Source: an uncultured archaeon (GTDB taxonomy: Archaea > Aenigmatarchaeota > Aenigmatarchaeia > GW2011-AR5). Taken from it: a stretch of 34,492 nt of DNA. Made by a program: the position numbers and the translations under genes. Location: the NCBI GenBank assembly GCA_964372695.1, contig CAYJRV010000001.1:1-34492 (forward strand), given 5' to 3'. Shown here piece after piece: positions 18,142 through 33,822 of this stretch (its first letter is position 1; every line of letters begins with the position of its first letter). The notes beneath the pieces are model-generated. The model worked only from the letters and a program-made list of their open reading frames with translations. It did no database searches and was not told where the DNA came from.

Positions 18142-18199
18142 GGATATTATCAAACAGTTTAAGGTTATAAAACCATTTGCATTTAATTCTAGCTATTAC

Positions 18200-18286
18200 A
18201 GCCCCGTAGTCTAGAGTTAAACGGAGTATGGTCAAGGATAGCTGCCTCTGGAGCAGCGGACCCAGGTTCGAATCCTGGCGGGGCTA
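18200..18286 (+). tRNA. tRNA-Gln (anticodon CUG) with a 12-14 nt insertion in the D-loop
   Basis: Acceptor AGCCCCG/CGGGGCT with discriminator A, then U8 A9. D stem GTCT/GGAT. Anticodon arm GCTGC-CTCTGGA-GCAGC. T arm CCAGG-TTCGAAT-CCTGG. The D-loop is 23 nt where 7-11 is expected. A TATA-like GGTTATAAAACC lies ~30 nt upstream. No CCA is encoded. Confidence 0.8.
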
Positions 18287-33733: not shown

Positions 33734-33822
33734 GGGCGTGTAGCTCAGCTTGGATAGAGCACTTACCATAAGGTGCAAGCCTTCTAAGCAAGGGGTCGCG
33801 GGTCCGAATCCCGTCACGCCCA
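33734..33822 (+). tRNA. tRNA-Arg (anticodon UCU) with a 14-nt intron at non-canonical position 29/30
   Basis: Acceptor GGGCGTG/CACGCCC with discriminator A. D arm GCTC-AGCTTGGATA-GAGC. T arm GCGGG-TCCGAAT-CCCGT. Removing ACCATAAGGTGCAA (33765-33778) yields a perfect anticodon arm CTTGC-CTTCTAA-GCAAG. A TATA-like ATTTATAAG lies ~30 nt upstream. Confidence 0.8.

Follow-up and report, generated by a model that had tools for sequence, protein, structure and literature searches.

Is the 23-nucleotide (nt) stretch that separates the two D-stem strands of an archaeal transfer RNA (tRNA) gene an enlarged D-loop, a mark of decay, or an intron? The question is raised by a tRNA-Gln(CUG) gene at positions 18200-18286 (+ strand) of the 34,492-nt stretch of DNA that we analyzed as a whole (the window), which is contig CAYJRV010000001.1 (C1) of the GenBank assembly GCA_964372695.1 (G000), from an uncultured archaeon of the Aenigmatarchaeota (DPANN). 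The initial annotation of this locus had left all three explanations standing side by side, and our analysis favors the last of them. We consider it highly likely that this is a functional gene, interrupted at tRNA position 15/16 by a 14-nt protein-spliced intron, AGTTAAACGGAGTA (18215-18228), with a relaxed HBh'/BHL motif, which EndA would cut and whose exons RtcB would join. The comparison of homologous genes makes it very probable that the insert is a real intron; cleavage itself and the exact cut sites are predictions made from the sequence.

Around the 23-nt stretch the gene is complete, and every element of the canonical arms listed in the initial annotation can be read in the sequence. 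Without 18215-18228 the D-loop reads AGTGGTCAA, so that this deletion does restore the standard form, as had been claimed. At default settings, ARAGORN calls the spliced sequence a 73-nt tRNA-Gln(ctg) and makes no call on the unspliced one. When the window was scanned, ARAGORN missed the gene and its sole call was the window's other tRNA gene; Rfam at the gathering threshold also missed it in the window and matched only that other gene. At a loose E-value, Rfam reports a distorted partial tRNA at 18230-18286, with 24.2 bits against a cut-off of 29 bits. Since the gene is invisible to both ARAGORN and Rfam, the genome would be annotated as having no tRNA-Gln(CUG). We also tried ARAGORN as a junction finder by giving it, at a lowered threshold, every version of the D region from which 6-23 nt had been deleted. 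Nearly any deletion of at least 10 nt yielded a tRNA-Gln call, so the scan was unable to place the junction; it was dropped, and exon homology was used instead.

The evidence that carries the intron reading comes from related genomes, which were sampled by a DNA search covering 40 genomes and by a pattern search for tRNA-Gln 3' ends in all 44 genomes of the family. Among the 37 tRNA-Gln genes that could be parsed from related genomes, 19 are interrupted precisely where A14-R15 would meet the [C/T]GG of the D-loop, by inserts that measure 13, 14, 15, 15, 19, 19, 23, 29, 32, 34, 34, 45, 49, 49, 49, 54, 85, 100 and >229 nt, the shortest being found in G011. The insert-bearing genes include both isoacceptors (CUG and UUG) and represent three families of the order (f1, f5 and f7). 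The remaining 18 genes have no insert at 15/16 and show a D-loop of the form AG[C/T]GG[T/C]C[A/C]A, which is exactly the pattern left here by removal of the 14 nt. Such a site, vacant in some genes and occupied in others by unrelated sequence of any length, bears the signature of an intron. Identity to the present gene amounts to 79-92% in the exons and 32-73% in the introns. The nearest intron, the 15-nt AGATAAACCGCATTA of G005, belongs to another genus and is identical at 11 of 15 positions.

We place the junction at 15/16 because the insert-less homologues read AG[C/T]GG. The GAGT direct repeat, present at 18214-18217 and 18224-18227, had been thought to make the boundary ambiguous, a concern that these homologues remove, and it plays no part in the reading favored here. 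We also rejected the repeat as the trace of a tandem duplication, because homologues carry unrelated sequences at the same site.

A second line of evidence is a pairing pattern that covaries across these inserts. With the junctions set by exon homology alone, the 19 genes were aligned over 26 columns, covering tRNA positions 10-15 and intron bases i1-i4, then a spacer, the nine bases that end the intron and the three that open exon 2. In the canonical layout of an intron at X/X+1, the central helix H pairs positions X-5 to X-2 with intron positions n-5 to n-2, the 5' bulge consists of X-1, X and i1, and the helix h', which begins at i2, directly adjoins H on the 3' strand, an arrangement with which the yeast anticodon-intron pair is consistent. 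In this register (H, positions 10-13 with n-5 to n-2; h', i2-i4 with n-8 to n-6), 84.2% of cells are paired, compared with 60.1 +/- 3.0% in column shuffles, and none of 500 shuffles reaches the observed value, although kinship among the 19 sequences makes these shuffle statistics overstate the support. Six slid registers give 19-56% of cells paired, and the covariation score is 0.638 versus 0.201 in shuffles.

At the level of single pairs, U11:i(n-3) is paired in 18/19 genes and U13:i(n-5) in all 19. Position 12:i(n-4) forms a G-C pair in 12 genes, a C-G pair in the other 7, and is unpaired in none. Each of the three h' pairs shows changes on both sides. The pair i2:i(n-6) is formed in 15/19 genes with five pair types, and the 3-nt bulge is therefore placed at A14-G15-i1. 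In three genera, both states of pair 12 are represented side by side, namely in g1 (our genome and G001), g4 (G022 and G005) and g17 (G042 and G018), and the intron 3' strand of H matches the state of the D stem, GGAx going with GTCT and GCAx with GTGT. These within-genus switches, which partly answer the problem of kinship, mean that the exon D stem (12 with 23) and its intron copy have changed together repeatedly. G10:i(n-2) is paired in 8/19 genes and unpaired in the other 11, including the present one, and a helix lacking one of its four pairs is thus the norm of the lineage and not a sign of decay. On this alignment, the effective central helix of the lineage is 3 base pairs (bp) long and the fourth pair is optional.

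The same elements can be located in the present gene. The 5' strand of H, G10-U11-C12-U13 (18209-18212), has its precursor partner at 18223-18226 and its mature partner, GGAT, at 18236-18239. The predicted H pairs are U18210:A18225, C18211:G18224 and U18212:G18223, and G18209 stays unpaired opposite G18226; the 3' strand, GGAG (18223-18226), is a near-copy of the D-stem 3' strand GGAT and covaries with position 12. Between H and h' lies the candidate 5' bulge, A14-G15-i1 (AGA, 18213-18215), where the canonical rule of cutting between bulge nt 2 and 3 would put the 5' cut at 18214/18215. The putative intron hairpin h' (18216-18222) consists of G18216:C18222 and U18217:A18221 closing a UAA loop (18218-18220). 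In the 3' splice region, U-A-U16 (18227-18229), the insert-less homologues predict a cut at 18228/18229. G18230 and G18231 face A18208 and U18207, with which they cannot pair, so there is no outer helix h and the 3' side is an open loop (BHL-like).

Consequently, the strict hBHBh' motif, which requires a central helix of 4 bp, a 3-nt bulge on either side of it and both outer helices, h and h', is absent here, and the earlier remark that no clean bulge-helix-bulge (BHB) can be drawn stands to that extent. It does not extend to the relaxed form (a central helix, one 3-nt bulge closed by h', and the other cut site in a loop), which can be drawn as h'-bulge-H with an open 3' side. By the definitions of the two classes in PMC5829648, the predicted motif is HBh' shading into BHL, since one bulge is well formed and the other cut site falls in a loop. 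The two candidate helices of the initial annotation, GUCU/GGAG and UCUA/CGGA, do have three of four pairs each, and the former is the one backed by the relatives.

The genome encodes both enzymes that such splicing would need. EndA (G000:C8:7781-8410, - strand) is a protein of 210 amino acids with an N-terminal and a catalytic domain (PF02778, PF01974), whose best structural relatives are the homotetramer subunit of M. jannaschii (1a79, E = 5e-36) and the catalytic subunit of N. equitans (3iey_A, E = 2e-30). In the segment that links the catalytic Tyr to the His, its sequence is YDRGVQLKKGPKSAKEH; M. jannaschii has YERGANI------DKEH there and N. equitans, in a gap-free alignment, YDIGVIPKKGKRSEREH. 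The basic insert KKGPKS (6-7 residues) aligns without gaps to KKGKRS of N. equitans; it is absent in M. jannaschii and kept in 76/80 Aenigmatarchaeota homologues. The exon ligase RtcB lies at C53:3453-4769 (573 bits).

An inventory of the EndA type, suggested as a check by the initial annotation, yielded one single-unit EndA with the basic insert and no second subunit gene. Queries with the Pfam model, the NCBIfam model of the beta subunit and the EndA protein itself matched no second EndA-like gene in the 81%-complete genome, which leaves an (alpha-beta)2 enzyme unsupported; a very divergent beta subunit could have escaped these queries. In the family, 40/44 genomes have an EndA match, with a single strong match each, including genomes that are ~90-97% complete. 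The architecture appears from these searches to be single-unit and alpha4-like. We considered the Crenarchaea-specific loop (CSL, L1) as the identity of the insert and rejected it, since Kaneta 2018 (PMC5829648) has L1 as not found in DPANN and names the loop shared with N. equitans 'L3'; on this ground we infer that the insert is the L3 loop. The same paper assigns alpha4-type EndAs with this Nanoarchaea/ARMAN-2 loop to DPANN lineages with heavily disrupted tRNA genes, and it gives their broad specificity as a bioinformatic inference. The insert may likewise confer broad specificity on the present EndA.

Two further features of this protein were observed. An N-terminal extension of ~35 residues in which Lys, Glu and Gln abound (MRIFMGKKNRQKNTEEQPEELDEKPEYVQWEQPKE) has no counterpart in the M. 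jannaschii enzyme, and the alignment begins at residue 39. The close homologues of EndA are all labeled Candidatus Aenigmatarchaeota archaeon and come mostly from groundwater metagenome-assembled genomes.

On the mechanism that we propose, U11, C12 and U13 of the D-stem 5' strand (18210-18212) would pair in the precursor with the intron bases G, G and A (18223-18225) instead of with their mature partner, and the two-pair hairpin (18216-18217 with 18221-18222) would stack directly on H. A14-G15-A(i1) would bulge out as three unpaired nt, while an open loop would hold the 3' junction (U-A-U16). The single EndA of the genome, with its KKGPKS insert, would cut after G15 and before U16, and RtcB would join the exons. 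The D stem would then re-form with GGAT (18236-18239), and the D-loop would become the family-typical AGUGGUCAA. GatE is also encoded in the genome, and the GatDE route is presumably the one by which tRNA-Gln is made. If GatDE inspects the D-loop of tRNA-Gln, this would be one more reason for the insert to be removed.

Several points weigh against this account. Single-unit (alpha4) EndAs are classically strict, and we found in the literature no biochemical demonstration of broad specificity for an insert-bearing DPANN EndA. The motif of the gene itself is weak, with three of four H pairs, an h' of two pairs over a 3-nt loop, and no h. RNAfold gives pair probabilities of ~0.29 for H and ~0.05 for h' and puts the bulge-helix conformer 1.7 kcal/mol worse than the open region. 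The minimum-energy fold of the region is a non-tRNA structure; the folding of so short an intron speaks neither for nor against the motif. In fixed register, 2.2% of shuffled 14-mers match equally well, and with free placement chance alone often produces relaxed 3-of-4 motifs (bioRxiv 10.64898/2026.10.13.758758). Because the motif is weak in this gene alone, the case rests on the comparative evidence. Same-junction inserts of 13 to >229 nt or none, a covarying helix, and an EndA with a basic insert together with RtcB bear out the relaxed-motif intron among the three explanations first offered.

A wider generalization may also hold, and we advance it tentatively. Under a lineage-specific relaxed rule, an alpha4-like EndA with a basic insert between Tyr and His would cut a 'half' motif consisting of a 3-nt bulge, h' and three central pairs; G10 would stay unpaired, and an open loop would hold the 3' site. 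If true, such a rule would allow introns of 13-14 nt, and introns could land at 15/16 again and again in many tRNA species. Biochemical proof of the rule would break with the textbook view that an alpha4 architecture goes with strict BHB specificity, and it would establish the smallest substrate of an archaeal EndA. The 19 homologous introns provide a motif-independent, covariation-based picture of what EndA apparently needs, that is, a 3-bp helix, one bulge and h', and this picture is a concrete substrate definition for testing the broad specificity of insert-bearing single-unit EndAs.

The alternative that survives best, though we still regard it as unlikely, keeps the intron and shifts its register by one position. 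Here H would comprise positions 11-14 (UCUA with CGGA) and the bulge G15-i1-i2, and cuts after 18215 and 18227 would release a 12-nt intron (18216-18227) and leave a mature D-loop of 11 nt, AGAAUGGUCAA, a length that tRNAs tolerate. This register has five pairs in common with the one at 15/16 and a similar overall score. A14 can pair with i(n-6) in 12/19 homologues, and by hand reading four of the genomes (G022, G028, G011 and G019) have four of four central pairs in it, compared with three of four in the other. In the present gene, however, A14 faces C18222, so that H again has three of four pairs and h' is left with 1 bp. Moreover, A14 is invariant and its pairing with i(n-6) therefore cannot covary, whereas the pairing of i(n-6) with i2 in 15/19 genes, by five pair types, is real covariation. 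AGAAUGG is found in none of the 18 insert-less tRNA-Gln genes, all of which have AG[C/T]GG. These observations argue for the 14-nt intron at 15/16.

With this 14-nt intron removed, the gene encodes a complete tRNA. Exon 1 (18200-18214, tRNA positions 1-15) holds the acceptor 5' strand AGCCCCG (18200-18206), U8 and A9 (18207-18208), the D-stem 5' strand GTCT (18209-18212), A14 and G15. Exon 2 (18229-18286, positions 16-73) holds the rest of the D-loop, the D-stem 3' strand GGAT (18236-18239), the anticodon arm GCTGC/CTCTGGA/GCAGC (18241-18257, where 18248-18250 are the anticodon CTG), a variable loop of 4 nt (GGAC), the T arm CCAGG/TTCGAAT/CCTGG (18262-18278), the acceptor 3' strand CGGGGCT (18279-18285) and A73 (18286). 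In the unspliced gene the apparent 23-nt D-loop, AGAGTTAAACGGAGTATGGTCAA, spans 18213-18235. CCA is absent from the encoded 3' end. A TATA-like box, TTATAAAA, lies upstream at 18165-18172 (+), at a distance of about 28-35 nt from the mature 5' end, and is a putative promoter; most other tRNA genes of the genome have similar TTTAAA/TTATAAA boxes at ~-28 to -45.

This integrity bears on a second alternative, which we judge decidedly improbable: that the gene is decaying or non-functional, its shrunken intron having a motif too weak to be cut, and that CAG codons are read by the tRNA-Gln(UUG) encoded at C26:4600-4749. The motif is the weakest of the set, with its 3-bp H, 2-bp h' and G-G mismatch, and a tRNA-Gln(UUG) gene does exist, whose product could in principle read CAG by wobble. 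A second intact tRNA-Gln(CUG) gene, which had been raised as a possible objection to the intron, is not found in the assembly, which contains this one copy; at 81% completeness another could exist. Against decay, every stem is intact, as are U8, A14, G15 with C48, G18 and G19, the T-loop UUCGAAU, A1:U72 and A73, the exons keep 79-92% identity to orthologues, and a promoter-like box is present. The three-of-four helix recurs in 11 of the 19 homologous introns, so this copy is no exception. That G005, from another genus, has a near-identical 15-nt intron in which a change at position 12 is compensated indicates that selection has long retained the intron.

Kept in the mature tRNA, the insert would perturb the contacts of G18-G19 with the T-loop. 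Such a permanently enlarged 23-nt D-loop is barely credible: tRNA finders do display stretches of this kind as unpaired D-loop insertions, for instance in Asgard genomes (bioRxiv 10.64898/2026.10.13.758758), but some homologues carry inserts of up to 100 and >229 nt at this site and others carry none, lengths of at least 100 nt make a D-loop nature impossible, and a loop would have no reason to keep a covarying complement of the D-stem 5' strand.

The favored reading, an EndA-spliced intron at 15/16, invokes no new mechanism, as non-canonical relaxed-motif tRNA introns are already known in DPANN. What is particular here is the 15/16 site, the very short intron (14 nt, and 13 nt in G011) and the systematic lack of the fourth central pair. 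The closest experimental precedents are the D-loop introns at 20b/21 of A. pernix tRNA-Thr and M. kandleri tRNA-Glu, which have relaxed motifs and are spliced in vitro and in vivo (PMC3241643; PMC5829648). Like them, the present intron lies in the D-loop, has a motif built from D-arm exon and intron bases with one proper 3-nt bulge and a relaxed other side, and would be removed by EndA alone. It differs from them in its site, its length of 14 nt, and a central helix of effectively 3 bp in which G10 mostly has no partner. A further difference is the enzyme, apparently a single-unit EndA with a different insert and not an (alpha-beta)2 enzyme with a Crenarchaea-specific loop, and splicing was shown there by experiment, whereas here it is predicted from comparison of sequences.

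Among DPANN systems with insert-bearing EndAs, namely the epsilon2 enzyme of ARMAN-2 (Fujishima 2011, PMC3239211), the (alpha-beta)2 enzyme of N. equitans and the L3-loop alpha4 enzymes of Kaneta 2018, we find the same combination of a small genome and tRNA genes that are mostly interrupted at non-canonical sites. The extra basic loop can be aligned with that of the N. equitans alpha subunit, but in contrast to the three-unit epsilon2 enzyme of ARMAN-2 and the N. equitans heterotetramer, EndA here is apparently a single unit. The multi-intron and transposed tRNA introns of Thermoproteales (Sugahara 2008 and Fujishima 2010, as cited in PMC4090602) offer another parallel, with many interrupted genes, varied positions, related introns in different tRNA genes, and rapid gain and loss among close relatives, although phylum and EndA type are different. 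Intron positions named in PMC4090602 include 3/4, 20/21, 22/23, 25/26, 29/30 and others; 15/16 is not among them, the exact position not having been searched in the wider literature. In Asgard archaea, enlarged D-loops of the standard annotation have been recognized as intervening sequences, and D-arm inserts often lack a canonical BHB (bioRxiv 10.64898/2026.10.13.758758). The present gene resembles these hidden introns, since annotation would display an enlarged D-loop where there is really an intervening sequence. It differs from them in lineage and in that covariation among homologues backs a specific relaxed motif.

The tRNA complement of the genome places the gene in a wider pattern. In the whole assembly (982 kb, 111 contigs, 49% G+C, 81% completeness), Rfam gives 12 tRNA matches above cut-off, and a scan for a T arm with a matching acceptor stem finds 23 tRNA genes, of which 4 measure 71-74 nt and 19 have insertions. 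By hand reading, the insert lies directly after A14-R15 in 8/23 genes, the present one and others on C5, C12, C32 (two), C33, C65 and C66, which makes 15/16 a recurrent intron site in this genome; G10 is unpaired in 5 of these 8 introns. The annotation risk seen for tRNA-Gln(CUG) would apply to most tRNA genes of the assembly, 19/23 being interrupted, and recognizing D-loop mini-introns at 15/16 improves DPANN tRNA inventories. ARAGORN mislabels several tRNA genes of the assembly, for example as 'Pyl', 'SeC' or a wrong 'Gln', and the tRNA set needs manual curation. On contig C1 itself, the two tRNA genes are those at 18200-18286 and 33734-33822, the latter a tRNA-Arg gene whose intron lies at 29/30.

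The other glutamine isoacceptor, tRNA-Gln(UUG) at C26:4600-4749 (+), which ARAGORN takes for a tRNA-Pyl(cta), has two introns, one after A21 and one in the anticodon loop, and no intron at 15/16. The sequence AGCCCTGTAC, just upstream of the gene, forms a partial copy of the acceptor 5' strand, and the same partial copy stands upstream of the tRNA-Gln(UUG) genes L047 (G046) and L052 (G015). In these two genes a further intron of ~24-31 nt interrupts the D-stem 5' strand around position 10-11 (AGCCCCGTGG|AGAAG...ACGGAA|TGTAGCGG, with an approximate boundary), and the tRNA-Gln genes of the family have introns at at least four different sites. A tRNA-Gln-like gene in G012 (L065, contig C13) has a 15-nt intron at 15/16 in addition to an anticodon-loop intron. 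Its anticodon loop reads CCCTGG..A, with C at position 33 in place of the universal U33, which may reflect a sequencing error, a pseudogene or an unusual tRNA.

Finally, different tRNA genes and positions (15/16 and 37/38) have an intron module in common, [T/A]GCAAATCCCTTTC..hairpin..GAAAGGTC..CCCCAAAG. It is carried in our genome by genes at C5(-)1077, C32(-)733, C33(+)7625, C65(+)90 and C3(+)109, and in relatives by L036 (G008) and L044 (G043). By analogy with Thermoproteales, it looks like a mobile or copied intron family. On C55, one copy of the module directly follows the 3' end of the tRNA (after ...CGAGCCCA) and falls outside all recognized exons.

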